Source: a virus
Lineage: Duplodnaviria > Heunggongvirae > Uroviricota > Caudoviricetes
Virus record (IMG/VR): IMGVR_UViG_3300021400_002728
Span: 330,267 to 394,266 of that record
DNA: 64,000 bases
Direction: 5' to 3' (one strand)
In this document: piece after piece, positions 31,594 to 59,214 of the stretch
Layout of the letters: the number at the start of each line of letters is the position of its first letter
How positions within the stretch are numbered: position 1 is the stretch's first letter
Translations under genes and position numbers: made by a program
The notes under the pieces: generated by a model
What the model was told of the DNA's origin: nothing
The model's input: the letters and a program-made list of their open reading frames with translations, nothing else
Databases searched by the model: none

Positions 31594-31628
31594 ATTATAT
31601 CATATTTATATTAGAGTTGTAAATAGTT
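31594..31628 (-). promoter_or_regulatory. Sigma-A type promoter towards the adhesin
   Basis: AACTATTTACA-18 nt-TATAAT with extended TG. Confidence 0.65.
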
Positions 31629-31669
31629 TTTTCAAAAAACAGTTACAATCTTTTATAAGAACCATTGTA

Positions 31670-31864: not shown

Positions 31865-32003
31865 ATATCTATAATAAATAATTAGTTCCTTGAAAAATCT
31901 ATATTCTAAAAATTATCCTACCCAATAATTTTTAGTTTAATGAGAAATCATATTACCCAATGAAACTCATTTACAGCATCTAATAACTTAATATTCACAA
32001 TTA

Positions 32004-32040
32004 AATAAGATGCTATAACTCGATAGCATCTTATTATTTT
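32004..32040 (+). terminator. Terminator for the + strand non-coding transcript
   Basis: AATAAGATGCTA-loop-TAGCATCTTATT followed by ATTTTT. Confidence 0.65.
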
Positions 32041-32059
32041 TGGGCTCATTTTTAGGAAT

Positions 32060-32092
32060 AAAATAAAAGAGCCTCAACTTTCGTCAAGGCTC
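32060..32092 (-). terminator. Terminator after the HHDA lipoprotein gene
   Basis: GAGCCTTGAC-GAAA-GTTGAGGCTC followed by TTTTATTTT. Confidence 0.85.
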
Positions 32093-32118
32093 ATAGTTCT
32101 TTGAAAATTTATTTTATT

Positions 32119-32841
32119 TTATTTCTTTTCTTCACCACATTCAGAACAAACTGTATGAGTATGAGGAACTTCTACTTCAACTTCTTCATCGTAAGCATCA
32201 ACTGTTTCTGTATGAGTCTGAGCGTCATGATGAATGGTTTTATAAGTAGTATCATGATGTACTGTAGAAGTATGTGGAATCTGTACAGTAACTTGTTCGT
32301 CCCAAGCAGGTGTATCAACTACTGTTTCATCCCAAGCAGGTGTATCTTCTACCCAAACACGAATATACTTAGATATATAACCACCATCTGGTGTATATTC
32401 GCGCTCTTCTTGATATTCATAATGACCAGTAGCATCATGATGAACAATTTTATAAGTAGCATCATGATGGATTGTTTGTGTCTCTGTAGTATATGTGGTT
32501 ACTGTTTCATCCCATGCAGCTTTATCAACAACTTGTTCATCGTAAGCTTCTTTATCAACAACTGTAGTAGTTTCGGCATCATGATGTACAGTCTGTATCT
32601 CTGTAGTATAATATGTTTCTTCTACCCAATTATGTTCGCAAACTTCCTGTGTAGATTCAGAGGTCTCCTGAGTAGCTTCAGAAGAATCCTGAGTTTCAGT
32701 TTCGTCTTCAACTGTCTGCTCGATCTGAGTAGGATTAGTCAAAGGGTCATTAGATAAATTATGTGCACCGCATCCAGTTAAAATTCCAAGTGAAATTGCT
32801 GTAACGATTGTGATTGTAACTACAAGACTTTTGTTTTTCAT
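32119..32841 (-). CDS. Lipoprotein with HHDA / A(W/Y)DE repeats closed by a CxH...CxxC site
   Basis: Lipobox LTGC; CEHNW...5x HHD(A/T) and 5x A(W/Y)DE...HTVCSECG. Confidence 0.8.
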   Translation of the reverse strand: MKNKSLVVTITIVTAISLGILTGCGAHNLSNDPLTNPTQIEQTVEDETETQDSSEATQETSESTQEVCEHNWVEETYYTTEIQTVHHDAETTTVVDKEAYDEQVVDKAAWDETVTTYTTETQTIHHDATYKIVHHDATGHYEYQEEREYTPDGGYISKYIRVWVEDTPAWDETVVDTPAWDEQVTVQIPHTSTVHHDTTYKTIHHDAQTHTETVDAYDEEVEVEVPHTHTVCSECGEEKK

Positions 32842-33038
32842 GGTTTATACCTCCAGATATAAATTTGTGCTAAAGTTTTACCTTTAGCTGCCATTTAGTA
32901 AATCAAGTTCTCCAGCACTACCACTATTGTGATCACTGGATTTTTATCTGACTTACTATTTGAAGTATTTACTTACTAAAATACAGGTAATTTCTTACCT
33001 TCCACCTTTTATAGAACTATTATTTTATTTCTAATTAT

Positions 33039-33072
33039 ATTATAACAAGTTCTATGAAGAATGTAAATAGTT
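33039..33072 (-). promoter_or_regulatory. Sigma-A type promoter for the lipoprotein (about 190-nt leader)
   Basis: AACTATTTACA-17 nt-TATAAT with extended TG and an A-tract UP element. Confidence 0.8.
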
Positions 33073-33173
33073 TTTTTGAAAAAAGTTTCAAATTTTTTAT
33101 AAAAATATTTTCATTCTTCTAATCATCTAACTTCGATTTACCCGATCGAAATCATTTGATTTATTATGATTAT

Positions 33174-33207
33174 ATTATAACATGAATTTTTGTATTTGTA
33201 AATAGTT
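33174..33207 (-). promoter_or_regulatory. Sigma-A type tandem promoter
   Basis: AACTATTTACA-17 nt-TATAAT; upstream A-tracts resemble those of the 33039 promoter. Confidence 0.75.
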
Positions 33208-33348
33208 TTTTGAAAAATTTTTTAAATTTTTTTGTATTTATCTATTAACGAATTTTTCAATTATTTACTATTCGCTTCCTCCTTAAAACTTTTTAATCGT
33301 TAAAGGAATACATTTACCCAGATGAATTTCTTTATTGATTATGATATA

Positions 33349-33382
33349 ATTATATCAAGTAAAGCTAAATTTGTAAATAGTA
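33349..33382 (-). promoter_or_regulatory. Sigma-A type tandem promoter
   Basis: TACTATTTACA-17 nt-TATAAT with extended TG. Confidence 0.75.
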
Positions 33383-33513: not shown

Positions 33514-34224
33514 CTAGAACCATTTATCCTTTAGCACATCATCAGGATCTTTACCTACTATATCATAATCAGGAAGAAGTAGAACTTTATTATCAGGTGT
33601 GATAGTAAATCTACCTACTTTCATTCGATCAACAATAGGGTTAGATTTTCTGCTATTTTTTGCTTTTTCAAAATATTCCATCCATAATGTCTTCTTACTA
33701 TATTCTGTACCTGTGCTATTAAAGATGTCGTCATCAGTAAGTTCTCTCGGTTCTTGAGGAACATCAGACTGAAGTACTGAACTGATTTCATCGTCATCAG
33801 GTGGAGTATATTTCGGAATGACTGCCTGTGGTTGCTGTTGTTTTTGCTGTACAGGTTGCTGAACAACTTGAGGTTGAGGAGCAGGTTGCTGAACAGACTG
33901 TTGTACAACGGGCTGAACTTGAGGTTGTTCAACGGGTCTAGAGACTGGTTGAAGCTTTTGATGTTCAGGTTCATGAGTAACAGGTTGCAAAATAGGTTTT
34001 TGTACCTGAGGTTGTACAATAGGTTGAACAGGTGTTTGTTCCACAGGTTTTTGTTTTATTTTTAACTTAATTACCTTTGGCGTCGGTTCTAAAACCGGGC
34101 TTTCAGGTGGAATTATTTTTATGCACTGATTTTCAGGCGGAATAACTCTTATAGAAGGCTGAGGCGGAGTACTATATACAATATCCTGTTCTTGCAGTGA
34201 TTGTATAAAGTCCTGTAATGCCAT
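33514..34224 (-). CDS. P/Q-rich hypothetical protein
   Basis: GGAG SD; low-complexity QPVVQQ core and small C-terminal globular region. Confidence 0.7.
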   Translation of the reverse strand: MALQDFIQSLQEQDIVYSTPPQPSIRVIPPENQCIKIIPPESPVLEPTPKVIKLKIKQKPVEQTPVQPIVQPQVQKPILQPVTHEPEHQKLQPVSRPVEQPQVQPVVQQSVQQPAPQPQVVQQPVQQKQQQPQAVIPKYTPPDDDEISSVLQSDVPQEPRELTDDDIFNSTGTEYSKKTLWMEYFEKAKNSRKSNPIVDRMKVGRFTITPDNKVLLLPDYDIVGKDPDDVLKDKWF

Positions 34225-34358
34225 ATTGTCAATCTCCTATCTTAAACAAAAGATTCTCCTAGAAAATTAACTGAATCTAAACATTAAGTGAGCGATCCAT
34301 TAGTGTTAACATCTAGAAGAATCTTTGTCTATTCATTTAGTTTTCTAAATGTTCTGTA

Positions 34359-34709
34359 TTACTTAAGAATTACATTAGCTTCATTATTAGCCTTCTCAAT
34401 TACCTTATTACCCAATGTCTCAGCAGTATTACCAAGTTTCTTATAATTTACTGCCAGGAATACGAGACCGATAATAAGGATAAGGAATAATGCCTTACCA
34501 ACAATCTTAAAGATAGATACAGATCCCTGACCTTTTGCAAATTCAATACCGTCCTTAACAAGAGAAACGATAAGGAATAATGCAATGATACCACCACCAA
34601 TACCAGCAGCCCAGCTAACCAATGTGTTCATAAAGGTTGACTCAGTAGGAGCTGCGAATGCGAGGGTAATTGGTAAAATCTTTGAGATAAATTCAATTAC
34701 TGCAGTCAT
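34359..34709 (-). CDS. TcpD/VirB2 pilin-like small membrane protein
   Basis: 116 aa: leader ending LAFA, then two hydrophobic helices separated by KDGIEFAKGQGS. Confidence 0.55.
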   Translation of the reverse strand: MTAVIEFISKILPITLAFAAPTESTFMNTLVSWAAGIGGGIIALFLIVSLVKDGIEFAKGQGSVSIFKIVGKALFLILIIGLVFLAVNYKKLGNTAETLGNKVIEKANNEANVILK

Positions 34710-34724
34710 CGTTCAATCCTCCTT

Positions 34725-35231
34725 TTAGAATTTACTATACATGTAATCAAAGATCATTGCCATAGACTTATCATCAAATCTATTGATCTTATAATTACGT
34801 TTACGAAGATCGTCAACCAGGTCCTTGGCTACCTGATCAAACACTGGATTTGATGCATTGTCTGTTGCATCAACAACTACCTTAGCAGGAGCACCTTCAG
34901 ATTTGTTTCTGCGTTTATACTCGCGCTTAGGTTTATTGTTATTATTAAATAGCTCTTCAGATTCACTAGGTGACACCTCTGAACCTTCAGGAATACCTGT
35001 AGATTCCTCTGCACCTAATTCATCTTCTCCATTATTCGATTTTTCGTCGTCATCAAGAGTCACCTCTTCAACTAAATGACTCATCTGACTTTTTGCTGCA
35101 AGAGACATTCCATCAAGAAATTCATCTGTAGATACAGAATCCATCTGCTCTTCAAGAGTAAATTCTCTTTCATCAGAGGGTTCCTGCAGTTTATTAAGTC
35201 TATCTAATGCAGTTTCGTTATTATTAGCCAT
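34725..35231 (-). CDS. Acidic hypothetical protein
   Basis: GGAGG SD; part of the same operon. Confidence 0.7.
   Translation of the reverse strand: MANNNETALDRLNKLQEPSDEREFTLEEQMDSVSTDEFLDGMSLAAKSQMSHLVEEVTLDDDEKSNNGEDELGAEESTGIPEGSEVSPSESEELFNNNNKPKREYKRRNKSEGAPAKVVVDATDNASNPVFDQVAKDLVDDLRKRNYKINRFDDKSMAMIFDYMYSKF
34940..34958 (-). promoter_or_regulatory. Element-specific box inside a CDS, about 230 nt upstream of the pilin-like gene
   Basis: GAAGAGCTATTTAATAATA exact; translates as EELFNNN. Confidence 0.6.
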
Positions 35232-35242
35232 ATTGTACCTCC

Positions 35243-35794
35243 TTACTGCGGCTTCTTAGGCAATTTAAGATTTATTTTAGGTTTATTTGCCGGAGTTTGA
35301 GGCTGCTGATAAGGCTGTTGAGCCTGTTGCAATTTCATATCTGCAACTGAAGCACTATCATAATTTCCAGTTATAGAATCTATCCTACTCAACATAGTGA
35401 ATCCTTCTTCTGCAGAAACGTCCGGCACTTCCATAAGAGACATCTGCATCTTCAACTGACTTAACTCACTCTGAACAGACTTAAGTTTGTTCTGAGTATC
35501 ATTTAAGTCTTCTGATAATGTCTTATTCTCTTTAGTAAGATCAGAAACGGTTTTTTGAAGATCTGCAATAATAGGATCTACGTCTTCCGGATAATATCCA
35601 TATGGACTTGACACTCTAATACCTAAATCTTTAGCTAACTGCGAAAGCTCATGCTCAATCTTAGAACCCTTACGACTATTTTTCTGCTTAGGTTCTTTAG
35701 GCTGTTTTGGAGCTTTCTGAGGTTTTTCCTTTACAGGTTTTTCCTTCTTAGCAGGAGCCTCGGTTTTAGGTGTGTTATTATCCTTCTTAAACAT
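35243..35794 (-). CDS. DivIVA/GpsB-like coiled-coil protein
   Basis: SSPYGYYPEDVDPIIADLQKTVSDLTKENKTL resembles the DivIVA GY-xx-EVD...L-xx-EN-xx-L signature, followed by a coiled coil. Confidence 0.6.
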   Translation of the reverse strand: MFKKDNNTPKTEAPAKKEKPVKEKPQKAPKQPKEPKQKNSRKGSKIEHELSQLAKDLGIRVSSPYGYYPEDVDPIIADLQKTVSDLTKENKTLSEDLNDTQNKLKSVQSELSQLKMQMSLMEVPDVSAEEGFTMLSRIDSITGNYDSASVADMKLQQAQQPYQQPQTPANKPKINLKLPKKPQ

Positions 35795-35795
35795 A

Positions 35796-36137
35796 TTACA
35801 GCACCTCCACGTATTCCTGAATATCCTCGTTAAATCTAATTCTTACAATTTTTTCTGCACAAAGAATTTTATTGTACACTACTTTGTTACTAGATGTGAC
35901 GTATTGTTCAGAGTCTATTTTACCATAGACTCTGATCATAGCGCCTTGTTGAAGAATATCTTCAAGTCTTTCATCTACTTCACCAGGATAGATTACTCTA
36001 ATATAAGTAAATCTATTCTTTACTGTGTTGTCCATACAAGTATATTTTCCTGTAATGGCTGATACATTGAAATTTGCTATCTCTTCAAAGAGTTTCACAT
36101 CTTTTTGGACACAGCAATCTAAAATTACTTTATTCAT
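35796..36137 (-). CDS. SSB-like OB-fold protein without acidic tail
   Basis: MNKVILD...LQQGAMIRVYGKIDSEQYVT...VYNKILCAEKI follows the SSB pattern. Confidence 0.6.
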   Translation of the reverse strand: MNKVILDCCVQKDVKLFEEIANFNVSAITGKYTCMDNTVKNRFTYIRVIYPGEVDERLEDILQQGAMIRVYGKIDSEQYVTSSNKVVYNKILCAEKIVRIRFNEDIQEYVEVL

Positions 36138-37567
36138 ACGCTGTCTCCTTCAAATGTTACAATCTTATTGAGCTGTTCAATAATCTCGTCACTAGTATCA
36201 ATAGTAATCCACTGCTGATACCACTGAACCTGTTTGATTACTTTATCAATCTGACCAAACTGTGCTACAATAGGAGCAAATCTATTGATATTCTGCTCAA
36301 CAATCTTATTGATGTCGTCATCGTCTTTATCAATACGTGTAAGAACAACCTGAATCTTTTCAAGAATATTATCACCAGGTCTAAAGATATTATTCTGTCT
36401 CTGACCAGATAAAGTCTTGAACTGTTTGATTACAGACTTAACGGCATTAATTGAAGGGTTACAGGTGATGATAATCTTATCAGCAATCTTATAAAGATTA
36501 CTAATAGGAAGTTTTCCAATATAGTCAATACCGCTATCAAAGAAAACTACATCGTAATTATTAATGAGCTTATTGAATATATCATTCCAAAATTCATTGT
36601 CATTAGTAATTGTAGGAATATCCTGCGAAGGTGCAAGATAAAAGTCAATGTTAGGACTAAAGTGATCAGACTTAACCTTACAGTTCTCAAGATAACTAAA
36701 GTCTTTACGTTCATTTCTATAAAGTTTGTAGTAATCCTGCATAGTAGGTGTAAGTTTATTGATCGTAATACCAACCTGACCATCAATAATATCAAAGTCT
36801 GCTAATGCAATTCTTTCAGTTGGATGAGTCTTAGCATACCAGTAAGCGCTAATCAAACACGTAAATGTCTTACCAGTACCACCCTTAGAAGATCCAAATA
36901 AAATTACTTTTGCAGGAGCTGCTTTTCTATTTTTACTTCTATCACCAGCGTCATAGTCATCATACTGAAGCATATTACCTAAGTTAGTCTGCATCTGCTG
37001 AGTAGTTAACTGTTGCATCTGATTCTGACTCATAGGTTTAGGCTGAGTCTGAGGCTGTACAGGTGGCTGCGGCTGAATCGTAGGCTGTGGATTATATACA
37101 GGCTGCGAATAAGGCTGCTGATAGGGTTGCTGATATGGCTGCTGATACTGCTGAGGCTGAGGTGCAGGCTGTGGCTGCTGCATCTGAGGCATCTGCTGAA
37201 TCTGCTGCATTTGTGGCTGCACAGGTTCTGGCTGAACATAAGGTTCAGGCTCTGGCTCCTCATCTATTTTGGGTTCAGGTACATATGTAGAATATGTTCT
37301 AATTTCCTGAGTAATTGTAAATGTAGGAGCAGGTCTGTCATCAAATCTGTAATACATGATATTGACACCGGCTTCAACGTAAGCATTCAATCCTTGATAA
37401 ATCTCTTCCGTTAAATCAGCGACATCATACCAAATACCTTCATCAATTTCAAGACCGTCATCATCTGACGCACGAGTAAAGAACTCATTAGGCGTCCATT
37501 GCTCAACCTGAAAACCCTGTGCAAGATCCTCAGGAAGGCGCTGATCGGTACTTACTACAATGTACAT
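36134..37567 (-). CDS. MinD/ParA/CpaE-family ATPase with N-terminal domain and Q/P linker
   Basis: Deviant Walker A SSKGGTGKT, ALADFD, YDVVFFDS and ADKIII. Confidence 0.85.
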   Translation of the reverse strand: MYIVVSTDQRLPEDLAQGFQVEQWTPNEFFTRASDDDGLEIDEGIWYDVADLTEEIYQGLNAYVEAGVNIMYYRFDDRPAPTFTITQEIRTYSTYVPEPKIDEEPEPEPYVQPEPVQPQMQQIQQMPQMQQPQPAPQPQQYQQPYQQPYQQPYSQPVYNPQPTIQPQPPVQPQTQPKPMSQNQMQQLTTQQMQTNLGNMLQYDDYDAGDRSKNRKAAPAKVILFGSSKGGTGKTFTCLISAYWYAKTHPTERIALADFDIIDGQVGITINKLTPTMQDYYKLYRNERKDFSYLENCKVKSDHFSPNIDFYLAPSQDIPTITNDNEFWNDIFNKLINNYDVVFFDSGIDYIGKLPISNLYKIADKIIITCNPSINAVKSVIKQFKTLSGQRQNNIFRPGDNILEKIQVVLTRIDKDDDDINKIVEQNINRFAPIVAQFGQIDKVIKQVQWYQQWITIDTSDEIIEQLNKIVTFEGDSV

Positions 37568-37616
37568 ATAAGTTTCCTCCTATTTGTGAGGGCCATTTTT
37601 TGACCCTCACTATTAT

Positions 37617-37634
37617 ATAAATTAAATAGCTTTT
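37617..37634 (-). promoter_or_regulatory. Element-specific box upstream of the MinD-like operon
   Basis: AAAAGCTATTTAATTTATA; followed by a GTGAGGGTCA/TGGCCCTCAC hairpin at 37586-37610. Confidence 0.6.
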
Positions 37635-40363
37635 TATAGACGTTTCTTAGCACGCTGAACTTTAGCCTTAGTATCTTGATACATATGTCTAACGTCTTTC
37701 CAATTGAATCCAAGAATGACAATACAACATGCAATGTATAAGAATAATTCTATGAATCCTTTATCTACAAAGACATAATATAAAGTAATCATAAGGTTAA
37801 GCTTTAATGCAGCTGTAAAATAATCTACAAATGATTTCTTAACTGAATCAAAGAATGGTGCTATTCCCAAATCTGGTTTAAAGATTTCCAGCATTGTGAA
37901 ATAGATCATCTTAAATGTGGTAATCAATAATAAGAAGAATGATGTAATCTTCTTAATGATTACTGGGAACATGAAGAGTAATAATCCAGCATTAAATAAT
38001 GCAACATAACTTTGCCATTCAAAATGGTTATTTAATAAGTGTGCACGCTGATAGTTATTATTTATTGAACCATTAGCATAATACTGAGGTGAAATATTCA
38101 TCTGTGCATCAATAATTCTAAATAAATCAGCAGGTAAATCTGGATCATTTGCAGTAGTTTTAGTTAAATGATTAGGAAATTTAACTTCATCAACAGTCAA
38201 ATCAATTTCTTCTACTGCTTCCTCATCTAATGTAGAATCAATATGATATATTGTACCGCATGAATATGCATAAGCAGCCCAATTTCTGATCTCATTTCCA
38301 CCACCAGTAGGAACAAATACGTCACCAGTAGATTCTACACTATTATAGAATGCTTTACCAGTCATATCAGTCGTATCTATTTCCTCATTATCTTGTGGCA
38401 TCATATGATCTTCTGATACTGATGCATAATGTGTATATAAGTCTTCATAATTTCTATTATCAAACTGACCTCTACACCAAGGATTAAATACAGCCTTTCG
38501 CCATAATACTGCATGAACAGCTAAATCTGGATCAGAAACGTTAATTACTTCATCATTAGCTAATGATGCAGTTAATGCTTCATTAAAGATTGTATCAATA
38601 ATTGTAACTGCTTTTGTTATAGTTTCATTAAATATAGCAGGTTTAGCAATAGCTGCAAACATCATACCTAAACAAATGAAACCAACAAGAAATCGATTTA
38701 TTGCATCTCTAGCAGCGCCTTGACCTTTAGCATATTTAATCGCTTTACCAACTAGAGAGAATATAAAGAAGATCATTGCTAAACCTAAAATAACTAAAAT
38801 AGGCGCTTTAAGTACTGTCCAAACAGATGTACTTTCAAGATATTCTACTAATTCTACAAACACTTCTCTAAGCTCAGGTCCTATCATTAACGATACAATT
38901 GCAACAAACAGTTTAGCAATAGAAAGTTTAAGTGATCCTGAAACATAGAAATATCCATTAAACCATCCTAAATAAAGTGATGTTACACGAGGATCTTTTT
39001 CACTTCCACCTGGTGGTATATCATCTGTAGTTAGAACTAATGGTCTATCTGGGTAAACATTACAAGATAAGTAATTATATGCGTCATAATTAATTGAGTT
39101 AACTTTACGTAACTCTTTAATTTTATCTTGATCAATTGCGCTCCATACATGGTCTAATAGTGTAGGTGTATATGTAGCTTCACCCATATATCTAAACCAA
39201 TGTACATCTTCACCATATAATTCAAATAAACTATATGATGATGAACTATCACCATTACCTTGTAAATTATTTATATATCCAGTCCATACTTCTTTGTTAT
39301 GTTCTCTAAGATCATCATTTTTAGTTAAGTTAGCAATAAATCCACCATTTCTAGGATAATATGCAGCTGTTGAAGCATAACTATATAAAATACCTCTGTC
39401 TTGAATACCATCTCTAATGACGATACCTTTAAGACCTGCCATATTTATTACTTTATTAGCATATTTTTGATTCCAATCTTTTCCATGGAACATTTCCCAA
39501 AGAGGAATTGCTAATGCTTGTCTATGGGCAACAAAACTAGAAAGTTCATGACCATTAATAAATGTATGGAAATATGATTCTACACATTCATCAAGTGATT
39601 TTCCTTCTGTTTCTTCTATCCAAGCATTAATATCAGCATAACTATATCCTCCAATATCATGATCAGCTAAGAAATAAGATAACTGCTGTTCGAAAATATA
39701 CCATCTATCACCATTACCTTGCGCCCAAGAACATAGTCTACCAAAATTACCTTTACCAGTAAACTGATATAATCCACAACCAAGCCAACCTACACCTGCT
39801 TCATCATAATATCCACCACGTAAAGATAAGGTAGTACCAACTACACTTGAATACGTAGAACCACTCCAATCTGGTGGCGTATTTTCATGAATCTTATCAA
39901 TTGTATCTTGTGGAATATTATAGCCATTTACTAACAGTGTATCTGTACATAGTGTTCTAAAGTCAGCATTCGTATCCATCATCTGGCTATAATTATTGAT
40001 ATAAGCAACTGCTTCATCTTGTGAATCACCTAATTCTCCCAATCCCATTGGATCTGGACCTTCAATAATTTCTGGTCTATATCCACTCTCTGCCTCCATA
40101 CATGCTAATGCTGCACAGGCTTGGTTATCGTCCATACCTAAACCTTTGAATACACACCAAGCTCTGTATCGATACATTGCTTTCATGCTATTTTCAAAGT
40201 CATGAATATCTTCTGGATCTTCTAGTCCAGTATAACCATCAGTCGATGTGTAAGCATTAGCACGCGTAATAGTAGGCAAGGAAGATACAGCAAAGGATAG
40301 CATCGCAATGATGACTAGTCCTAATGCAATAATTGCACTAGCTTTACTAATCTTCTTTTTCAT
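37634..40363 (-). CDS. Phage-tail-lysozyme-like domain fused to a VirB6-like polytopic membrane region
   Basis: GMDDNQACAALACMEAESG...GCGLYQFTG...QLSYF lysozyme motifs, then about 6 TM segments around a large loop. Confidence 0.65.
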   Translation of the reverse strand: MKKKISKASAIIALGLVIIAMLSFAVSSLPTITRANAYTSTDGYTGLEDPEDIHDFENSMKAMYRYRAWCVFKGLGMDDNQACAALACMEAESGYRPEIIEGPDPMGLGELGDSQDEAVAYINNYSQMMDTNADFRTLCTDTLLVNGYNIPQDTIDKIHENTPPDWSGSTYSSVVGTTLSLRGGYYDEAGVGWLGCGLYQFTGKGNFGRLCSWAQGNGDRWYIFEQQLSYFLADHDIGGYSYADINAWIEETEGKSLDECVESYFHTFINGHELSSFVAHRQALAIPLWEMFHGKDWNQKYANKVINMAGLKGIVIRDGIQDRGILYSYASTAAYYPRNGGFIANLTKNDDLREHNKEVWTGYINNLQGNGDSSSSYSLFELYGEDVHWFRYMGEATYTPTLLDHVWSAIDQDKIKELRKVNSINYDAYNYLSCNVYPDRPLVLTTDDIPPGGSEKDPRVTSLYLGWFNGYFYVSGSLKLSIAKLFVAIVSLMIGPELREVFVELVEYLESTSVWTVLKAPILVILGLAMIFFIFSLVGKAIKYAKGQGAARDAINRFLVGFICLGMMFAAIAKPAIFNETITKAVTIIDTIFNEALTASLANDEVINVSDPDLAVHAVLWRKAVFNPWCRGQFDNRNYEDLYTHYASVSEDHMMPQDNEEIDTTDMTGKAFYNSVESTGDVFVPTGGGNEIRNWAAYAYSCGTIYHIDSTLDEEAVEEIDLTVDEVKFPNHLTKTTANDPDLPADLFRIIDAQMNISPQYYANGSINNNYQRAHLLNNHFEWQSYVALFNAGLLLFMFPVIIKKITSFFLLLITTFKMIYFTMLEIFKPDLGIAPFFDSVKKSFVDYFTAALKLNLMITLYYVFVDKGFIELFLYIACCIVILGFNWKDVRHMYQDTKAKVQRAKKRL

Positions 40364-40381
40364 TTACTGTATCTCCTTTCA

Positions 40382-43300
40382 TTAATCCTTAACTCCACCA
40401 ATTTTAGGTGGGTTTTTCTTCTTCTCTGATCCAGAACCCGTCTTAGTTTCCTGAGAATCTGTTGGACCATCACCATACATATCATTTACACTTTGTTGAT
40501 TGTCTGGTCTTTCTGACTGCTGCTTAGAAGGTCTTTCAATTCCATCGTCAGTCTTAATTCCGTGATGAGATATACCATGTCCAGCATCTACTCTATCTTC
40601 ATCTTTATAATCAGACTTATGATCAATATGCGTTCTATAAGTATAATCTTTTACATCGCGGTTTGTCTTATCTACTGTCTGTGTTTCTGCAGTAACAACA
40701 TGTTTAAGTTTAACTTGACCAATTTTTCCAGCTGCCATATGTTCTCTAATAGATTCTCCAACATTATCTTGACCATGCTCAAGATTTCTCATCTGACGTC
40801 TAGTCTGTTCATCATGCATCTTGTTATATGCAGGTCCTTCTTGAGCTTTAGCTCTATTATACCAGTTCATAACCTGAGTATCATACTTCTTAGCGCGATA
40901 TTGAGATCTACGATTACCATTCTCATCAAAGAGAACGTCGCGCTGTTCTTCAAGACTCATATTTGAATACTCTTCTGGCATATCATTATCAATATCCTGA
41001 TTCTTAGCTGCATTCTGAATTCTATCTTGCTGTAATCTTTGCTGAGCACGTGATAAGTTAGTTAACCAATACATCCAAATCAATGTATTAGGGAACCATA
41101 CCTGTCTACCAAAATCATGCCACCATCTGATCATCATAAATGTTAACCAGAATAAGAAGATTTCAAGAAGTAAACCAAATATTCCTTCTGCATCCATACC
41201 CATAAACATTACGATACCAGCGTATAAACCGATCATAATCATTGCTATAGTAGGAGCAAAAGTTTCAAGAATGATTCTACCCATTGGTTTACCTTCTGCA
41301 CCTCTACCTAAGATTACTCTAAAGATAAAGATATATAATACAAACCATTGCCATAAGAAAGTTAACATCTTAATTAACGATAACAAGCAACAGAGTATAC
41401 AGTTCAGAAGTTTTACAATAAGGTTGAGCATTCCAGATTGGAACTCTCCATTATAGTTTTCATTCATTCTTGTAGACATAGATAGACTATCACCATTATC
41501 AGTAATAGTAACTCTTGGGGCAAGGAAATGGTCAACTACACGATAAGCATTATTGTTTATCTTTGATCCATTATAAGTATGCCCACCAACTGTTACTGTG
41601 TTGGCAACAGAATTTGAATATCCCCAATAATGGAATGAATCCATTAATAATACTGACCAGTGTTTAACTTCAACACCACCAATTGTAGGAAATTCTTTTT
41701 CTACAGTCTCTCTATAGTCAGTTGCATCATTTATAACTTGTTCACTCTTTAATATACCATAACCAGTATTATACTTTGACCAAGTATCAAGATATGGCAT
41801 ATAATAAGTAACTTCCATATCAGATGCAGTACCATATAGATATGTTAATTCTGGAACGCTGTATATTGTAGACATTTCGCCTAGGTTAATTACCTTAGTA
41901 TCTACATTCTTAATCATCGTCCAAACTTTAGTTGGATTAGCAAACGTAGCAGTAATTAAACCTAATTCAAATACAAGTATAAAGAATGCTAGAATTAATT
42001 TAGCACCAGATTGAGTACCCATTTTTATGATGGCTACTACAGTCTTAAATATAAAGAAGACTGCTAACAAACACATCATAAGAGTTACATATCCACTAAC
42101 CCACATATTAGCAGGCGATAATCCATAACCGTCTAATACATCAAAATTACATAGCTGTTGCATAAATACTGAGAACTCAGTAATTCTACCTGCAAGCTTA
42201 ACTATAGTTTTTTGTGGTTTAATATAAATTCCAAGTGCTAATGGATTAATTGCAAAATCTGAAATTAACTTACCTACAACATGTGTTTTATATAGCTCAA
42301 CACGTGGATCATTTACACCATAATTTTCTCTGTCTCGTGCTAAAAGAGAAGCAGTATCATATGGCATTACACGTTTATCATCAGATATAACCATTGTAAG
42401 TGGTGCCATATTGCCTTCATTTTTAGCAGTAGCACACATAATTTTCATCATATTAGAAATTACTTCACTATAATATGGTCCACAATATGCTTCTAGTTTT
42501 GTAAGAATTTCATGTGTATCAGCATCTGTTAATTCATGTTTAGACTCTGGATAATCTTCAGTAACTGTCCAAATTCTACTATACGCATAAACATGAACTG
42601 TTGTAAGCGATGTCTTATCATCGCCATATTTTCTAGACCAGCACTCATCTTCTTTTTCACTCTCATTTGTAATTAAACATTGTCTATATAAGAGTTCTTT
42701 CTTAGATGTATCATCTGGCTGATCATCACCCTTCTTAAGAAGTTCAATGAATCTATCATGTTTTTCCATTAACTCTTGATTCTTAAGATAAGTGTTATAA
42801 ATATTCTGTAACTGTGCTGGAATAAAATCTGACTTATCAAATGTAAAGCTTTCAAAACTACAAGTAGCTATAAAGTCTTTATAATCATCGTAAGTCATTG
42901 TATTAGTAGTATCATTTTTAGCATATAAGTAAATAATTTTATAGTTAATATACTTTATTTCTGTTTGAGTATATGTAGTTTCTGACCATACTGTCCAACT
43001 AGTATCATCTGGTCCTTCTTTATCGTCATTACTACTAGAAGTTGCGGGTCCATTTTCATATGAATAATTATCATAATATTCAGGATCATCTCTAAATGGT
43101 TCAGTATCAGTAAAAACCATTTCTTCAATTTCATCTGTAATAGTAGTAGTCCAAGGGCCAATATCAGTATGTTCATTATAAATTGTATAACCACTTGGTA
43201 TTGCAACTGAATCTGAATATTCTGTTATAGTTCTTGTTCTAGTTTGAATTTGATATGATACATGTGCTTTAAAATTAGTACTAGTTTCAGTATATTTTAA

Positions 43301-44476
43301 AATATCTGCAGCTAAACTAATTGAATTATTTAAGTCTTCATTTTCAGTAAATTCAGTAGTAGTTATACCGTACTTAGCAGGTCTATTAAGATTCGTTCCG
43401 CTACCGCCATATCTTTTAAAACTACCGCAAGCAGCGTTAATCATAATATATGCTTTATTAGGATTAGCATTTACCCAATTAAGAAATACTGAATTATATG
43501 AAGGAATACTTGCTAAAAAATGCCATGCGTCATATTTTCTATTACCTACTAAAGTAGTAAGTGATAAACAAGCTTCAATACCAGCTGCTCCGCCACCAGC
43601 ACTTTCATAAGCATCCCAATATTCCATTCTTTGACATGCTTCTTTATATTCATCTGAATGTGTTTCATTATAGAGCTTAGCTTTACTATATGCTTCTTCA
43701 GTAACAGCTAATTCAATAACTTCTTCTGGTCCAGAAAAATACTCACCAGATAATTCAGCTTTAGATGCTTCAATTGTATCAACTGGAATTTGTCTTTCAA
43801 AATAATCTAAATAGTATAATTTAAAGAAATCTAAAATATAATCACTTTTATCTTTATATTCATGATTCAGATAAGTAATTGTATTAAAGTTATCTGCATC
43901 TGGTGCTTTTAAGAAAGACACACCGAATAAAGATTTAATCGCTCTCCAAGCTACTTCCCACCAATGTTTAGGATTAGGTAAAATACCAGCAGTAGACATT
44001 ACTTCTTTAGGATATTCGCCCATATAAGTATAACTTGGAACTTGAAAACCATATTTTGTTATGACATTTTCAGTAGTAGCGTTTTTACCAACTTTTACAA
44101 CCCATTCTGTATCTTCAATTTTATAAGTATCATCTGTATAACCATCATCAACCGATGAAATAACACGATTCTTACAAATAGATTGAAGATTTGGTGTGTT
44201 AAAATAACCTTTATAGATAGTCTCCCCGCTATCATCATATTTCTTTATGACTGTATAAGTCTTAAATTGAAATATCCAACTTACTATATCTGGAATATCG
44301 TAAATAGTGAAATCAAATAACTTTTCGACATCTTTTCCTTCAATAATATAATAAGTTGCATCAGATCCACTATCGCTAGGTATGTAGTTATCTGCAAAAG
44401 CTGGACTGAACGAAGATAATATCGTGATGGTACAAATACTCACTGCTAAAAATTGTTTTAACCATTCTTTAAACAT
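40382..44476 (-). CDS. Large VirB6-like membrane protein with about 750-aa exported N-terminal region
   Basis: Signal peptide (SPAFA), TM pair, large loop, TM cluster and charged tail; same layout as 37634 and 10498. Confidence 0.55.
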   Translation of the reverse strand: MFKEWLKQFLAVSICTITILSSFSPAFADNYIPSDSGSDATYYIIEGKDVEKLFDFTIYDIPDIVSWIFQFKTYTVIKKYDDSGETIYKGYFNTPNLQSICKNRVISSVDDGYTDDTYKIEDTEWVVKVGKNATTENVITKYGFQVPSYTYMGEYPKEVMSTAGILPNPKHWWEVAWRAIKSLFGVSFLKAPDADNFNTITYLNHEYKDKSDYILDFFKLYYLDYFERQIPVDTIEASKAELSGEYFSGPEEVIELAVTEEAYSKAKLYNETHSDEYKEACQRMEYWDAYESAGGGAAGIEACLSLTTLVGNRKYDAWHFLASIPSYNSVFLNWVNANPNKAYIMINAACGSFKRYGGSGTNLNRPAKYGITTTEFTENEDLNNSISLAADILKYTETSTNFKAHVSYQIQTRTRTITEYSDSVAIPSGYTIYNEHTDIGPWTTTITDEIEEMVFTDTEPFRDDPEYYDNYSYENGPATSSSNDDKEGPDDTSWTVWSETTYTQTEIKYINYKIIYLYAKNDTTNTMTYDDYKDFIATCSFESFTFDKSDFIPAQLQNIYNTYLKNQELMEKHDRFIELLKKGDDQPDDTSKKELLYRQCLITNESEKEDECWSRKYGDDKTSLTTVHVYAYSRIWTVTEDYPESKHELTDADTHEILTKLEAYCGPYYSEVISNMMKIMCATAKNEGNMAPLTMVISDDKRVMPYDTASLLARDRENYGVNDPRVELYKTHVVGKLISDFAINPLALGIYIKPQKTIVKLAGRITEFSVFMQQLCNFDVLDGYGLSPANMWVSGYVTLMMCLLAVFFIFKTVVAIIKMGTQSGAKLILAFFILVFELGLITATFANPTKVWTMIKNVDTKVINLGEMSTIYSVPELTYLYGTASDMEVTYYMPYLDTWSKYNTGYGILKSEQVINDATDYRETVEKEFPTIGGVEVKHWSVLLMDSFHYWGYSNSVANTVTVGGHTYNGSKINNNAYRVVDHFLAPRVTITDNGDSLSMSTRMNENYNGEFQSGMLNLIVKLLNCILCCLLSLIKMLTFLWQWFVLYIFIFRVILGRGAEGKPMGRIILETFAPTIAMIMIGLYAGIVMFMGMDAEGIFGLLLEIFLFWLTFMMIRWWHDFGRQVWFPNTLIWMYWLTNLSRAQQRLQQDRIQNAAKNQDIDNDMPEEYSNMSLEEQRDVLFDENGNRRSQYRAKKYDTQVMNWYNRAKAQEGPAYNKMHDEQTRRQMRNLEHGQDNVGESIREHMAAGKIGQVKLKHVVTAETQTVDKTNRDVKDYTYRTHIDHKSDYKDEDRVDAGHGISHHGIKTDDGIERPSKQQSERPDNQQSVNDMYGDGPTDSQETKTGSGSEKKKNPPKIGGVKD

Positions 44477-47472: not shown

Positions 47473-47952
47473 CTAAAAGTCCCATTGATTTTCGTGTTCA
47501 TCTACGTTATAGGCAAATAATTTGATTACATCATAATAATCAAATGTCTTAATATCAAATGTATTTTCATCAAATGTATTTTCATCAATATAAATTTTTG
47601 AACCATCTTCGTATGTTACAATGTAACCAATATCTTTCTCTGGGCCTTCAATATTTTTAATATATCTAGTAGAAAATCGTCTTACATTATTTATAACATA
47701 TCTTGGAATGACTTGATTATCTATTCTATAATAAGTAATATTTACTCCAGATGATTCATACAAAACTAAGTTATTATATAAGTCTTCAGTAAGTACATTA
47801 ACATCAATTACTAATCCTTCATCATATTCAGAAAAACCATCTTCAGACATGGCAGCAGTAACAAATTCTTTTGCTGTCAATCTTTTATAATTATAATATG
47901 TTAGTTTGAATGATTCTGGAAATACTGATTTATTACTAATTACAATATACAT
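47473..47952 (-). CDS. Copy of the MinD-like N-terminal domain fused to an 'EFALEV'-type module
   Basis: MYIVIS...DEGL...LTEDLY...GVNITYYR aligns with the 36134 N-terminus; start at MYIV follows GGGAGG. Confidence 0.7.
   Translation of the reverse strand: MYIVISNKSVFPESFKLTYYNYKRLTAKEFVTAAMSEDGFSEYDEGLVIDVNVLTEDLYNNLVLYESSGVNITYYRIDNQVIPRYVINNVRRFSTRYIKNIEGPEKDIGYIVTYEDGSKIYIDENTFDENTFDIKTFDYYDVIKLFAYNVDEHENQWDF
47539..47588. repeat. 15-bp tandem repeat (DENTF-DENTF-DIKTF)
   Basis: atcaaatgtattttc x2 plus one degenerate unit. Confidence 0.8.
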
Positions 47953-48503
47953 CAAAAATCCTCCCAAAGATCTTTAAGAGAATTATTATATAGTTCGCGT
48001 GTAACCTGTACGTCAGATTCAGAATATATAAGAGTAGGCGCATCAAATGGATGTGTATAAATATCATCAAAATTAAGATCAAAAATATCTTTTTTATTAT
48101 TCTTTGGTCTTGTATCATTAGTGATAATATTAACATCTAAAGCAAACTCTTTAATAACATCTTCTTTAGAAAGCGAATTCATTTCATCAGAATATCTATT
48201 ATAATCATCTATAGACACAGTTACCATAGTATCGTCTGAATACATTAACACTATATATCTTTCATCATTAGACTTAATATTTGTAGTAGCAGATTTAATA
48301 TACGGCAATCCATTAGTAATCTTATATTTATTCTTGAGTTCTTGTTCAGTATAAGTATCACAGTTAAAATCTTTACCTAATATTGAAGCTAAAGATTTTA
48401 ATGTAGTAGTCTTACCAGAGCCAAAAGAAGCAGACATTCTACCAGTACTAACACCAGTACTATGATATCTAGTTGAGTGTTCAATAGACATTCGTGTTCT
48501 CAT
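47952..48503 (-). CDS. 'EFALEV'-module paralogue
   Basis: MYSDDTMVTVS...DVIKEFALDV. Confidence 0.65.
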   Translation of the reverse strand: MRTRMSIEHSTRYHSTGVSTGRMSASFGSGKTTTLKSLASILGKDFNCDTYTEQELKNKYKITNGLPYIKSATTNIKSNDERYIVLMYSDDTMVTVSIDDYNRYSDEMNSLSKEDVIKEFALDVNIITNDTRPKNNKKDIFDLNFDDIYTHPFDAPTLIYSESDVQVTRELYNNSLKDLWEDF

Positions 48504-59180: not shown

Positions 59181-59214
59181 ATTATATCACAGATTAGATA
59201 AAAAGTAAATAGTT
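59181..59214 (-). promoter_or_regulatory. Sigma-A type promoter
   Basis: AACTATTTACT-17 nt-TATAAT with extended TG. Confidence 0.75.

Follow-up and report, generated by a model that had tools for sequence, protein, structure and literature searches.

We have characterized, at one end of a 394-kb circular-looking mobile element, an operon in which the gene for a ParA/MinD-fold ATPase is followed by genes for a tail-less OB-fold protein of the SSB family and for a coiled-coil protein that, by profile comparison, is a genuine but remote relative of the DivIVA/GpsB N-domain. The explanation that we favour, tentatively, is that this ParA system is partnered by the DivIVA-like protein and tethers the DNA of the element, via the OB protein and a protein of the AT-hook type, at a membrane or polar site close to an envelope machine. 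An earlier first-pass annotation had proposed that the element encodes its own module for positioning a transfer machine or its DNA; the juxtaposition of a ParA/MinD ATPase with a DivIVA/GpsB-domain protein upholds one part of that proposal, whereas the type IV secretion assignments of neighbouring genes fall below family cut-offs. The element has a GC content of 32% and belongs to a family of uncultured mobile elements of 230–470 kb from cattle and other guts. The stretch analysed, hereafter the window, comprises its terminal 64,000 nt.

The operon and its conserved surroundings

All six features originally listed for the operon were found at the coordinates given, on the minus strand. The description of these genes as a single operon agrees with the gaps between them, which measure −4, 1, 11 and 15 nt from the ATPase gene to the last gene, and with RNA-library contigs from four studies that span each junction, these being assembled contigs in which DNA carry-over is possible. 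A promoter-like box and hairpin (37586..37635, minus strand) can be read from the sequence upstream of the ATPase gene: the box core, AGCTATTTAAT at 37631–37621 on the minus strand, is followed by TATATAAT, a 25-nt hairpin (37610–37586) and GGAGG, with the ATG of the ATPase gene at 37567. When up to one mismatch is allowed, the core is present in 11 copies on the minus strand of the whole window and in none on the plus strand, and the box precedes the ParA homologue by 37–98 nt in 14 of 31 related loci. A second core (34944..34954, minus strand) lies within the gene for the acidic protein, where it encodes E-L-F-N-N-N, 235 nt upstream of the final gene of the operon; it is a candidate internal promoter that may provide an extra start for the last genes, and the box occurs at the equivalent place in 17 of 36 related genes.

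The operon is part of a larger block in which genes for a polytopic membrane protein, a hydrolase, the ATPase, the OB protein, the DivIVA-like protein, the acidic protein, a protein with two transmembrane helices and, in most of the longer loci, a P/Q-rich protein follow one another in fixed order. This order is kept in all seven viral-collection loci, in one MAG locus and, of 42 metagenome loci, in every one that is long enough. The conserved unit is thus larger than was recognized at first pass, spanning at least 33514 to 44476. Because the element genomes are collinear overall, well beyond this block and including a conserved upstream sbcD, synteny is nevertheless weak evidence of function. 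At the upstream end, the polytopic protein (1364 aa; 40382..44476, minus strand), which has no family match, is always encoded upstream of the hydrolase gene, and the latter always directly upstream of the ATPase gene in related loci; its product is an envelope protein of 909 aa (37634..40363, minus strand) with an N-terminal Phage_lysozyme2 hydrolase domain (PF18013, 36.1 bits) and a polytopic membrane region. At the downstream end, the P/Q-rich protein (236 aa, 29% P+Q; 33514..34224, minus strand) has no family match in Pfam, NCBIfam or PHROG. It is preceded by the small membrane protein of 116 aa (34359..34709, minus strand), which has a signal-like N-terminus and two transmembrane helices and shows 29% identity over 89 aa to a transmembrane segment of the 909-aa protein. 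The label ‘pilin-like’ given to this small protein was not confirmed, because its weak match to T4SS_pilin (14.9 bits, E 0.028) was not reproduced in five homologues, leaving topology as the point of resemblance. Type IV secretion assignments of other neighbouring genes are likewise below cut-offs (TcpE, 17.6 bits; VirB4, 19.9 bits), and the nearest secretion ATPase, 22 kb from the operon, is of the PilT/TraJ/DotB type and not TadA; their sequences make a weak case for an identity in conjugation.

The ATPase and the small proteins encoded with it

The ATPase, ParA477 (477 aa; 36134..37567, minus strand), matches Pfam AAA_31 (29 bits, cut-off 27) and, as its best PHROG, PHROG 164, annotated ‘ParA-like partition protein’ (5.7e-13), in agreement with its initial designation as a MinD/ParA protein. 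An alpha/beta N-domain (residues 1–95) is joined by a disordered, P/Q-rich linker (97–213) to the ATPase domain (218–477), which carries the deviant Walker A motif SKGGTGKT. Residues K228, G229, G230, G232, K233, D257, D259 and D344 are invariant across an alignment of 17 homologues. In the AF2 model (pLDDT 74), residues 218–477 superpose on the ParA-family ATPase 3ea0 with a Z of 23.8 and on MinD with a Z of about 22 (VIA). A paralogue of the N-domain (47668..47952, minus strand; tblastn 41% identity over 96 aa, E 4e-16) lies within an ORF at 47473–47967 and carries a different C-terminus.

The stop codon of the ATPase gene overlaps the start of the next gene as ATGA, an arrangement by which the OB protein, ssb113 (113 aa; 35796..36137, minus strand), is predicted to be translationally coupled to the ATPase. 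Its score against Pfam SSB (24.2 bits) is slightly below the cut-off of 26, with no other Pfam match at E<=0.1. The family comprises 80 clusters, nearly all of exactly 113 aa and 48–90% identical, and in the PDB its profile finds no proteins other than bacterial SSBs (best 1.1e-5), aligned over profile positions 2–108 of 113, so that the earlier description as a tail-less SSB-like OB fold stands: both the Gly-rich linker and the acidic tail are lacking. The protein is acidic (pI 5.2) and, by reading of the alignment, keeps only two or three of the four aromatics that stack on ssDNA.

The coiled-coil protein, cc183 (183 aa; 35243..35794, minus strand), consists of a Lys-rich N-tail (residues 1–48; net positive in 77 of 80 family members), the motif IRVSxPYGYYPEDVD (59–73), a long helix (69–120) and a conserved SLMEVPDxSxEE..MLSR segment (118–138) followed by a P/Q/K-rich tail. 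The protein itself scores 24.2 bits against Pfam DivIVA (cut-off 28), but this model is matched at E<=0.01 by 49 of the 82 family members and the runner-up family by eight. The relationship to DivIVA claimed at first pass was borne out, as a remote one, when the family was aligned by hhalign with 28 genuine DivIVA/GpsB proteins (probability 87.7%, E 3.4e-6), the register being kept over GY....VD. The PDB matches in register are GpsB, Wag31 and DivIVA. In the AF2 model a short helix leads through an 11-residue loop into a long helix. The likeness does not extend past the N-domain and the first part of the coil; a membrane loop of the F17/R18 type is not clearly conserved, and residues of the GpsB groove, by reading of the alignment, are not conserved in register. 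In a distant high-GC relative (L081) the coiled-coil homologue directly follows the ParA homologue, the OB gene being absent between them, which favours these two as the core pair.

The acidic protein, acid168 (168 aa; 34725..35231, minus strand), was correctly described as such (pI 4.4; 39 D+E against 21 K+R) and has no match in Pfam, NCBIfam or PHROG. An acidic N-terminal half precedes a basic patch in the centre (KPKREYKRRNK), and the C-terminal part forms a conserved helical domain. The patch is a canonical RGRP-type AT-hook in 24 of 40 relatives, while the copy in the window has lost the GRP core. The acidity of the OB protein and its few retained aromatics, this lost core, the lack of a repeat array beside the operon and the remoteness of the DivIVA match count against a DNA tether.

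Alternative functions for the operon

A TadZ/CpaE-, FlhG- or BcsQ-like role, in which the ATPase and the DivIVA-like protein place an envelope machine at poles or septa, is in our judgement somewhat unlikely. That machine would comprise the PilT/DotB-like ATPase together with the 1364-aa, 909-aa and 2-TM membrane proteins, and the OB and AT-hook proteins would be separate DNA-processing accessories such as relaxosome or helicase helpers like HelP of ICEBs1. Like TadZ/CpaE (E. rectale TadZ, 3fkq), FlhG/FleN and BcsQ, ParA477 has an extra N-terminal domain in addition to the ParA/MinD ATPase domain; the latter aligns with 3fkq at a Z of 20.6 and matches MinD, FlhG, FleN and TadZ (20.6–22.1) as well as it does Soj/ParA (about 20; VIA). 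The gene also lies among envelope-machine genes, the operon being invariably found between the hydrolase/polytopic genes and the 2-TM gene, its box motif is common to the adhesin and further envelope operons, and in L082 and L083 a gene for a distant paralogue of the coiled-coil protein immediately follows that for a PilT-like ATPase. Orphan ParAs encoded within the operons of their cargo are well established (PMC9178275). However, the 3fkq alignment covers only residues 215–472, leaving the N-domain unaligned with the receiver-like domain of TadZ; a disordered P/Q linker of 117 residues separates the N-domain from the ATPase domain, and no membrane-targeting helix is present. Unlike the situation in Tad loci, tadA, flp and tadBC are not adjacent, the distant secretion ATPase being of another type. 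The sub-threshold type IV secretion assignments and the whole-genome collinearity further weaken the argument from neighbourhood, and inheritance of a 394-kb replicon with no other detectable partition NTPase is left unexplained. As regards the OB protein, Gram-positive ICEs do have OB-fold relaxosome auxiliaries; HelP of ICEBs1 and OrfL/OrfM of ICESt3, auxiliaries of the relaxosome or helicase, are small tail-less OB-fold proteins, as is ssb113 (PMC12857230). In contrast to these, ssb113 matches the SSB family itself, and the gene to which it is coupled encodes a ParA and not a relaxase or coupling protein.

Plain nucleoid-based partition, with ParA using a matrix provided by the host nucleoid, either the AT-hook or the OB protein acting as an unconventional centromere binder and cc183 as a mere ATPase-stimulating adaptor with no role at membrane or pole, appears unlikely. 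A deviant Walker A ATPase gene followed by small, translationally coupled partner genes is the classic layout of type I plasmid partition (ParA with ParB or an RHH ParG-type protein), and in the 394 kb of this large replicon, presumably kept at low copy number, no ParA-type ATPase besides ParA477 was found; the annotation of its top PHROG and the AT-hook in most acid168 relatives point the same way. Partition by a ParA–ParB pair, which the first-pass annotation had set against its own proposal, is not borne out, because ParB_N was not found in the element or in five relatives. Tubulin was not found in these six elements either. No StbA_N match indicative of ParM was detected, but the control for this search was likewise silent, so that an actin-type system may yet be encoded, which also counts against this explanation. 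Moreover, no centromere-like repeat array or other centromere candidate was seen beside the operon, the partners come from other fold families, the relatives of the DivIVA/GpsB head act at membranes, known partition systems make no use of an ssDNA-type OB protein, and the 95-aa N-domain and long linker are unlike type Ia/Ib ParAs.

Elements of such size carry many host-manipulating genes, and the MinD-like and DivIVA-like proteins might mimic or titrate host Min, DivIVA or GpsB, blocking or redirecting division or wall synthesis during replication or transfer of the element. We regard this as very improbable: the cc183 head does resemble GpsB/DivIVA, docks for division and wall-synthesis proteins, and a candidate host MAG has DivIVA and GpsB-like genes of its own, yet the SSB-like coupling and AT-hook partner indicate a DNA cargo, the GpsB groove appears not to be conserved in register and genes resembling minC or minE were not seen. 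Least credible of all is a true jumbo phage with unrecognizably divergent virion genes, whose operon would organize sites of phage DNA replication or packaging, for although the source record is classed as viral, has terminal repeats and is rated ‘complete’ by CheckV, and the element has 39 tRNAs, tmRNA, a CCA-adding enzyme, homing endonucleases and a one-stranded gene order, it matches none of the Terminase_6N, TerL_ATPase, Terminase_6C, HK97 capsid and Phage_portal profiles, five relatives likewise lack Terminase_6N, ParA and the DivIVA-like protein gave no tblastn match in 50,697 GenBank phage records, and TerL-less gut ‘huge phages’ have been reassigned to the conjugative megaplasmids (PMC12934698). 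These ‘Hodor’ megaplasmids of the human gut, with Bacillota hosts, are TerL-less, exceed 300 kb and were originally filed as huge phages (PMC12934698; bioRxiv 2026). The present element is similar in being large, in being filed as viral, in giving no terminase match and in encoding a Phage_lysozyme2 domain; Hodor elements, which share that domain and also have giant surface proteins and a T4SS, differ in GC content (44–47%) and in encoding Rep_3, ParA, ParB and ParM, whereas here the GC content is 32%, tRNAs number 39 and ParB is absent, and the Hodor paper mentions no DivIVA, MinD or SSB module (PMC12934698). The ATPase, OB and DivIVA-like proteins had no matches in 72,556 sequenced plasmids, which, like the lack of phage matches to the ATPase and the DivIVA-like protein, agrees with the first-pass remark that described Gram-positive conjugation systems are not known to include such a module.

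A proposed DNA tether at the membrane

The interactions, localisation and DNA cargo that we infer for the operon products are as follows. Given its intact deviant Walker A motif and its fold, the ATPase would form ATP-dependent dimers, and its direct partner would be the DivIVA/GpsB-domain protein encoded two genes downstream. ParB, MinE, McdB and ParG act on ParA-type ATPases through basic N-terminal peptides, and the Lys-rich N-tail of cc183 may contact or stimulate ParA477. The DivIVA-like head would anchor the complex to a membrane or envelope protein at a defined site, be it a pole, a septum or the envelope machine of the element, and the DNA end of the tether would be formed by the ParA-coupled OB protein and the acidic protein with its AT-hook or basic patch. 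In Agrobacterium, the ParA-like ATPase VirC1 of the Ti plasmid and its small DNA-binding partner VirC2 deliver the transfer intermediate to a type IV secretion machine at the pole. VirC1 is likewise encoded on a mobile element, but its sequence relationship to ParA477 is undetectable beyond the superfamily, and it is a Gram-negative protein with no DivIVA-like or SSB-like partner. Close parallels are found in the polar DNA anchoring centred on DivIVA in Firmicutes and Actinobacteria, namely RacA–DivIVA with Soj/Spo0J in B. subtilis, ParA–Wag31/DivIVA in Mycobacterium and ParA–Scy–DivIVA in Streptomyces. DivIVA/Wag31 is known to associate with ParA, and DivIVA is the polar anchor of RacA and Soj/Spo0J (PMC9178275). 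These systems, too, combine a ParA-type ATPase, a DivIVA-domain coiled coil and DNA-binding adaptors in tethering DNA to a membrane landmark (PMC9178275). Their parts are scattered on the chromosome, whereas here all are encoded in one mobile-element operon, the DivIVA-like protein shares the N-domain alone and has its own C-terminal motif, and, with neither ParB nor RacA present, SSB-type OB and AT-hook-type proteins would serve as adaptors.

As ParA477 is the sole ParA-type ATPase of the 394-kb replicon, and ParB, tubulin and a detectable ParM were not found, a role in segregation of the element is at least as likely as machine positioning. The outcome of the proposed tether would be that the 394-kb element DNA is held or moved at a membrane site, which may promote inheritance of the element, delivery of its DNA to the envelope-spanning machine encoded by the flanking genes, or both.

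Organization and conservation of the operon

All credible genes between 30 and 45 kb of the window lie on the minus strand. Read 5' to 3', the block begins with the gene for a polytopic protein of 1364 aa (TM1364; 40382-44476), followed by that for a 909-aa protein joining a Phage_lysozyme2 domain (PF18013, 36 bits) to a polytopic region (37634-40363) and, beyond a 66-nt spacer, by the genes for the ATPase ParA477 (36134-37567), the OB protein ssb113 (35796-36137), the coiled-coil protein cc183 (35243-35794), the acidic protein acid168 (34725-35231), a 116-aa two-TM protein (34359-34709) and the P/Q-rich 236-aa protein PQ236 (33514-34224). ParA477 and ssb113 overlap by an ATGA, and the gaps that follow ssb113 are, in order, 1, 11 and 15 nt long, the last two with Shine-Dalgarno sequences. 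The spacer upstream of ParA477 contains AAAAGCTATTTAATTTATATAAT, a 25-nt hairpin and GGAGG. The box noticed here in the first-pass annotation is real and oriented, since all 11 copies of its core, AGCTATTTAAT, that the window contains at up to one mismatch are on the minus strand and the plus strand has none; a 21-nt pattern around the ParA box matched nothing but itself, and the shorter core is the informative one. The box precedes the ParA homologue in 14 of 31 relatives and is missing from a more distant clade. One copy lies within acid168 (34954-34944), where it encodes ELFNNN, and recurs at the same place in 17 of 36 relatives (e.g. loci L001, L002, L007, L043, L044, L046, L047 and L049), the box and the LFNNN peptide being conserved together. 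To judge by its sequence, this internal copy has an apparent dual use, as coding sequence and as a putative internal promoter for the two-TM and P/Q-rich genes. Between the block and a giant adhesin gene there are also three to four copies of a unit of ~90 nt (33021-33381 and 31618-31661), each bearing a promoter close to consensus (TTTACA-17-TATAAT) and extended by TG.

Three of the operon products have P/Q-rich low-complexity stretches, namely the linker of ParA477 (36927-37279), the tail of cc183 (35243-35320) and PQ236 (33760-34020). Similar codon repeats of the CAGCAGCC type (repeat family D2) make up these stretches, which may act as spacers or condensate-forming segments; proline and glutamine account for 20, 19 and 29 % of the respective whole proteins.

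The synteny survey suggested in the first-pass annotation found a conserved gene order. The arrangement p152-TM1364-hydrolase-ParA-OB-cc-acid-PQ, in which the hydrolase is the 909-aa protein, is kept in all of seven IMG/VR loci (contigs of 14-467 kb, ParA identity 36-93 %), with the two-TM gene also seen in at least five of them; a search of 185,579 species genomes gave a single match, which lies on a 50-kb contig in the bin of a ‘Bacilli bacterium’ MAG and has this gene order too, and the order is kept in each sufficiently long locus among the 42 that the cc profile detected in metagenomes. Conservation extends upstream of the block to sbcD, so that the genomes are collinear overall and neighbourhood alone is weak functional evidence. 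In a high-GC relative, a 1.7-kb metagenome contig (L081, 58-1747), a 413-aa ParA homologue of the same architecture is followed directly by the cc homologue, with no OB gene between. DNA matching the whole or part of the stretch is present in 20 bovine gut metagenome runs from nine studies, and RNA libraries of four studies yielded contigs that span the operon genes and bridge every junction, i.e. hydrolase/ParA (37167-37684), ParA/OB/cc (35702-36166 and 35703-36419), cc/acid (35009-35726) and acid/two-TM (34613-35009); as these are assembled contigs, DNA carry-over is possible. By the same measure of assembled contigs, 31934-33334 is without RNA coverage in all four runs.

The ATPase and the proteins encoded with it

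ParA477 is firmly placed in the ParA/MinD (deviant Walker A, SIMIBI) superfamily, as the first-pass annotation had proposed. Its deviant Walker A motif is S-K228-G-G-T-G-K233-T (SKGGTGKT), with the signature lysine, the Walker A' and B aspartates are present as well, and residues K228, G229, G230, G232, K233, D257, D259 and D344 are invariant in 17 homologues of 42-91 % identity, as are DFDIIDGQ, FFDSGIDY and a family-specific QWYQxW motif. The same alignment falls into three parts, a conserved N-domain of ~95 aa, a variable P/Q-rich linker and the C-domain; correspondingly, the AF2 model (pLDDT 74) has a confident alpha/beta N-domain and C-domain and is disordered over residues 97-213. Superposed with VIA, residues 218-477 match the ParA-family structure 3ea0 with a Z score of 23.8 (rmsd 2.5, 233 residues aligned), and the ATPase domain matches MinD 3r9j (22.1) and Soj 8jmj (20.4); Z scores for McdA, FleN/FlhG, TadZ 3fkq and BcsQ are 21.1, ~21, 20.6 and 19.6, and the Foldseek E value for the fold is 1.9e-11. 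The subfamily is unassignable from structure, because these scores (19.6-23.8) are near-tied across MinD, FlhG, McdA, TadZ, Soj and BcsQ. Among sequence profiles, Pfam AAA_31 scores 29 bits (cut-off 27), CbiA scores 24.3 bits, and PHROG 164, ‘ParA-like partition protein’, matches at 5.7e-13; NCBIfam gave nothing but far-sub-threshold matches to RepA, MinD and ParA, and a search of PDB sequences with the ParA profile gave no match. We reject MinD proper, as the NCBIfam minD_bact score, 19.1 bits, is far below the cut-off (212.9) and the protein has neither a MinD-type C-terminal amphipathic membrane-targeting helix nor any hydrophobic stretch, its C-terminus (..IIEQLNKIVTFEGDSV) being acidic and packed in the AF2 model. 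Metagenomes contain more than 250 homologues, nearly all of them unnamed, on contigs as long as 586 kb. The N-domain has a single paralogue in the element, at 47668-47952, fused to another C-terminus (41 % identity, E 4e-16), and the protein Atlas returned nothing for this domain.

The description of ssb113 as a tail-less SSB-like OB fold overlapping the ATPase gene was likewise upheld. The Pfam SSB profile PF00436 scores 24.2 bits against a cut-off of 26, aligning residues 1-97 with positions 1-101 of 104, and TIGR00621 scores 23.8 bits. The family, the best conserved of the block, comprises 80 clusters, nearly all of exactly 113 aa and 48-90 % identical, about half of which carry PF00436. 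Its profile matched only bacterial SSBs in the PDB (7d8j at 1.1e-5, over positions 2-108 of 113, and 5yyu at 3.1e-5), whereas ssb113 alone had no match among PDB sequences. The Pfam match is borderline, and we place ssb113 among the SSB-type OB folds. In the profile alignment, Y45 and the invariant Y79 fall on two of the four aromatic positions that we take to be the ssDNA-stacking residues of characterized SSBs; of the other two, one has an aromatic residue only adjacent to it (Y50) and one is lost. The acidic C-terminal tip of SSBs recruits partner proteins; ssb113 ends at residue 113 (..EYVEVL), with neither this tip nor the disordered linker. Compared by hhalign with the element's own canonical SSB, the OB family was not significantly similar (probability 1.0 %, E 0.056).

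Among 1.84 billion representatives, searched in full with HMMER, cc183 has 92 relatives (82-237 aa), which share a basic N-tail, a (I/F)R(V/I)SxPxGY(Y/F)PEDVD motif in which P64 and G66 are invariant, a coiled coil and the motif LKMQxSLMEIPDxSxEEDFxMLSR. The N-tail, of 10-89 aa, carries a net positive charge in 77 of 80 members (median +5). Although Pfam DivIVA scores only 24.2 bits against cc183 (cut-off 28; residues 64-117 on profile positions 15-68), it is matched at E<=0.01 by 49 of 82 family members, compared with eight for the next coiled-coil family, and the PDB matches of the family profile, to GpsB (4ug1, 0.0088; 4ug3, 0.016), Wag31 (6lfa, 0.05) and DivIVA (7o39, 0.2), all align at the same place. 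Single DivIVA or GpsB sequences gave weak hhalign results (1.5 and 53 %); the one informative comparison was that with an alignment of 28 real DivIVA/GpsB genes taken from Bacilli genomes, and here 62 columns aligned at a probability of 87.7 % (E 3.4e-6), GY....VD being in register and the loop before the motif bearing an insertion of 3 residues. The membrane-inserting loop of Bacillus subtilis DivIVA pairs a hydrophobic residue with an arginine, F17/R18, and the cc183 family has a conserved (I/F)-R pair before its motif, offset from that loop by the insertion. In the AF2 model (pLDDT 80), helix 52-57, an 11-residue loop and helix 69-120 follow what we take to be the layout of the DivIVA N-domain, with a further helix at 128-138; Foldseek and VIA searches with this model retrieved generic long helices only and are uninformative on the DivIVA fold. 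What stands of the DivIVA-like assignment in the first-pass annotation is therefore the N-domain: cc183 is remotely related to the DivIVA/GpsB head and has no DivIVA C-terminal tetramerization domain, the Pfam match ending at profile position 68 of 131 and the C-terminal part carrying the different, family-specific motif SLMEIPDxSxEEDFxMLSR. Searches of viral contigs with the distant cc homologues P0212 and P0208 found no relatives, and alignment A4 was too divergent for scanning. ORF 58567-59151, which adjoins the PilT-like ATPase, is a lipoprotein rather than a cc183 paralogue.

No Pfam, NCBIfam or PHROG family matched acid168, and the Atlas yielded only a poor model (pLDDT 0.50) and nothing useful. 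In 40 non-redundant homologues the N-half is acidic, the centre bears a basic patch and ~45 aa at the C-terminus form a conserved domain. A canonical AT-hook (RGRP, KRGRGRPRK or PGRP) occupies the basic patch in 24 of the 40; in the window's own acid168 the patch is a degenerate KPKREYKRRNK without a GRP core, and by the R-G-R-P core this copy is not an AT-hook protein.

For the 116-aa protein, called pilin-like in the first-pass annotation, the topology holds but the family does not. Hydrophobic stretches at residues 1-21, ~29-59 and 61-93, with an AFA-AP site after the first, predict a signal-like start and a two-TM hairpin, a topology common to many small membrane proteins. The T4SS pilin profile PF18895 (VirB2) scores 14.9 bits against a cut-off of 26.6, and the match was not reproduced in five homologues, which gave unrelated weak matches (TrbL fragments at E 0.03-0.07). 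The protein (34359-34709) and a TM hairpin encoded within the 909-aa gene (38576-38836) are paralogous membrane modules, with 29 % identity over 89 aa that takes in a FAKGQG/YAKGQG loop.

The element carrying the operon

The window makes up the final 64 kb of one record of 394,266 bp, which has a 101-bp terminal overlap and 32 % GC and is filed as viral. Outside the window, at record positions 104893-125227, 39 tRNA genes form a block, and there is a tmRNA whose tag is ANNVQMAA; one tRNA has the anticodon UUA and would read the TAA stop, and table 11 gives a normal reading of the window's ORFs. GC skew stays negative over all 394 kb, in each 5-kb bin, without a switch point, and the credible genes of the window are all on one strand; replication or transfer in one direction (possibly of rolling-circle type), or an effect of transcription alone on the skew, may underlie this. 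Searches with Terminase_6N, TerL_ATPase, Terminase_6C, HK97 capsid and Phage_portal gave no match; Terminase_6N was also not found in five relatives of 126-467 kb, all of which have a PilT/DotB-like ATPase. The corresponding ATPase of the window (59213-60373), its only T2SSE ATPase and 22 kb from the operon, scores 169 bits with PilT, 144 with TraJ (plasmid), 137 with DotB, 48 with VirB11 and 33 with the TadA family, and, should the machine be a T4SS, would belong with the ATPases of type IVB systems or of pilus retraction. Matches to TcpE (17.6 bits) and VirB4 (19.9 bits) in the element fall under their cut-offs, and the T4SS assignments are weak.

The element is probably a giant, non-viral episome with a divergent envelope machine. 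No relative of ParA477, the OB protein or cc183 was found among 72,556 sequenced plasmids, and none of ParA477 or cc183 among 50,697 phage records. Other TerL-less ‘huge phages’ from guts were shown in a 2026 preprint to be conjugative megaplasmids (PMC12934698). By their description, the ‘Hodor’ megaplasmids are set apart from this element by another GC content and by Rep_3, ParA, ParB and ParM (PMC12934698), and we reject identity with them on GC and gene content; ParB is present in the Hodors, whereas no ParB_N was found here. We also dropped a defence-system reading, because the PADLOC matches (LmuB, JetC) were coiled-coil noise.

Possible roles of the operon

The pairing of a ParA/MinD ATPase with a coiled-coil landmark is a well-known principle. 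In this operon the ATPase is accompanied by two candidate DNA binders, one of ssDNA type (the OB protein) and one of AT-hook type in most relatives (acid168), and by a putative membrane-landmark-type partner, cc183 with its basic tail. Our working hypothesis, to which we would give slightly less than an even chance, is therefore that the operon tethers DNA at a membrane site, much as in the known RacA/Soj-DivIVA and ParA-Wag31 systems (PMC9178275).

A second reading, rather unlikely but alive, is that the envelope machine itself is positioned in the manner of TadZ. It draws on the place of the operon among envelope genes, on the box common to both, and on locus L082 (430-3331; also L083), in which a PilT-like ATPase is followed, after an intervening zinc-finger/endonuclease-like ORF of 329 aa, by a distant cc paralogue of 146 aa (IRISQPFGYFPEDVD); in L082 a canonical tailed SSB is found 1.7 kb further on. 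On the other side, ParA477 is not in a tad locus, its neighbours being the lysozyme-polytopic protein and the SSB-like gene instead of tadA, flp and tadBC, and the secretion ATPase, 22 kb away, is PilT-like rather than TadA. TadZ/CpaE proteins have an atypical receiver domain at the N-terminus; the superposition (VIA) on TadZ 3fkq covers model residues 215-472 and 3fkq residues 120-354.

Plain partition of the element, which we consider improbable, stays alive because ParA477 is its only ParA-type ATPase. The first-pass annotation had named action with a ParB as the alternative to its own proposal, and this did not find support: ParB_N (PF02195) had no match at E<=0.1 in the 394-kb element, nor at E<=0.01 in six elements, with a control that rang in 11 of 14 genomes, and ParA477 is thus not a type I ParABS ATPase by its partner. 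Tubulin was not found in the six elements, and the StbA_N (ParM) control was silent, so that the absence of ParM cannot be read from that search. No repeat array flanking ParA477 or the operon was seen; the promoter-like repeats at 33021-33381 are downstream of the block and resemble promoter units. Interference with host division is very unlikely, and a phage role for the operon less likely again.

Tethering of DNA at a membrane site can be taken a step further. We suggest, as a speculative extension, that a self-contained polar-landmark kit of DivIVA-domain protein, ParA ATPase and ssDNA/dsDNA adaptors docks the ~400-kb genome to the element's envelope-spanning transfer machine. In the literature that we searched, we found no mobile element whose single operon combines a ParA with a DivIVA-domain partner, an OB protein derived from SSB and an AT-hook protein; nor is there, in those papers, a description of these partners as a set, of their joint encoding in an operon of a mobile element or of their confinement to an undescribed family of giant elements from guts. 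The carriers form a widespread uncultured family of tRNA-rich, terminase-less elements of 230-470 kb from cattle and other guts, and the operon is an obvious starting point for work on their inheritance and spread, as it holds the only recognizable positioning ATPase there. The cc183 family offers a natural minimal DivIVA-head protein for study of that domain's recognition. If the docking kit is real, ParA cargo systems would gain a new kind, one that in Gram-positive hosts couples inheritance of the DNA to its conjugative hand-over.
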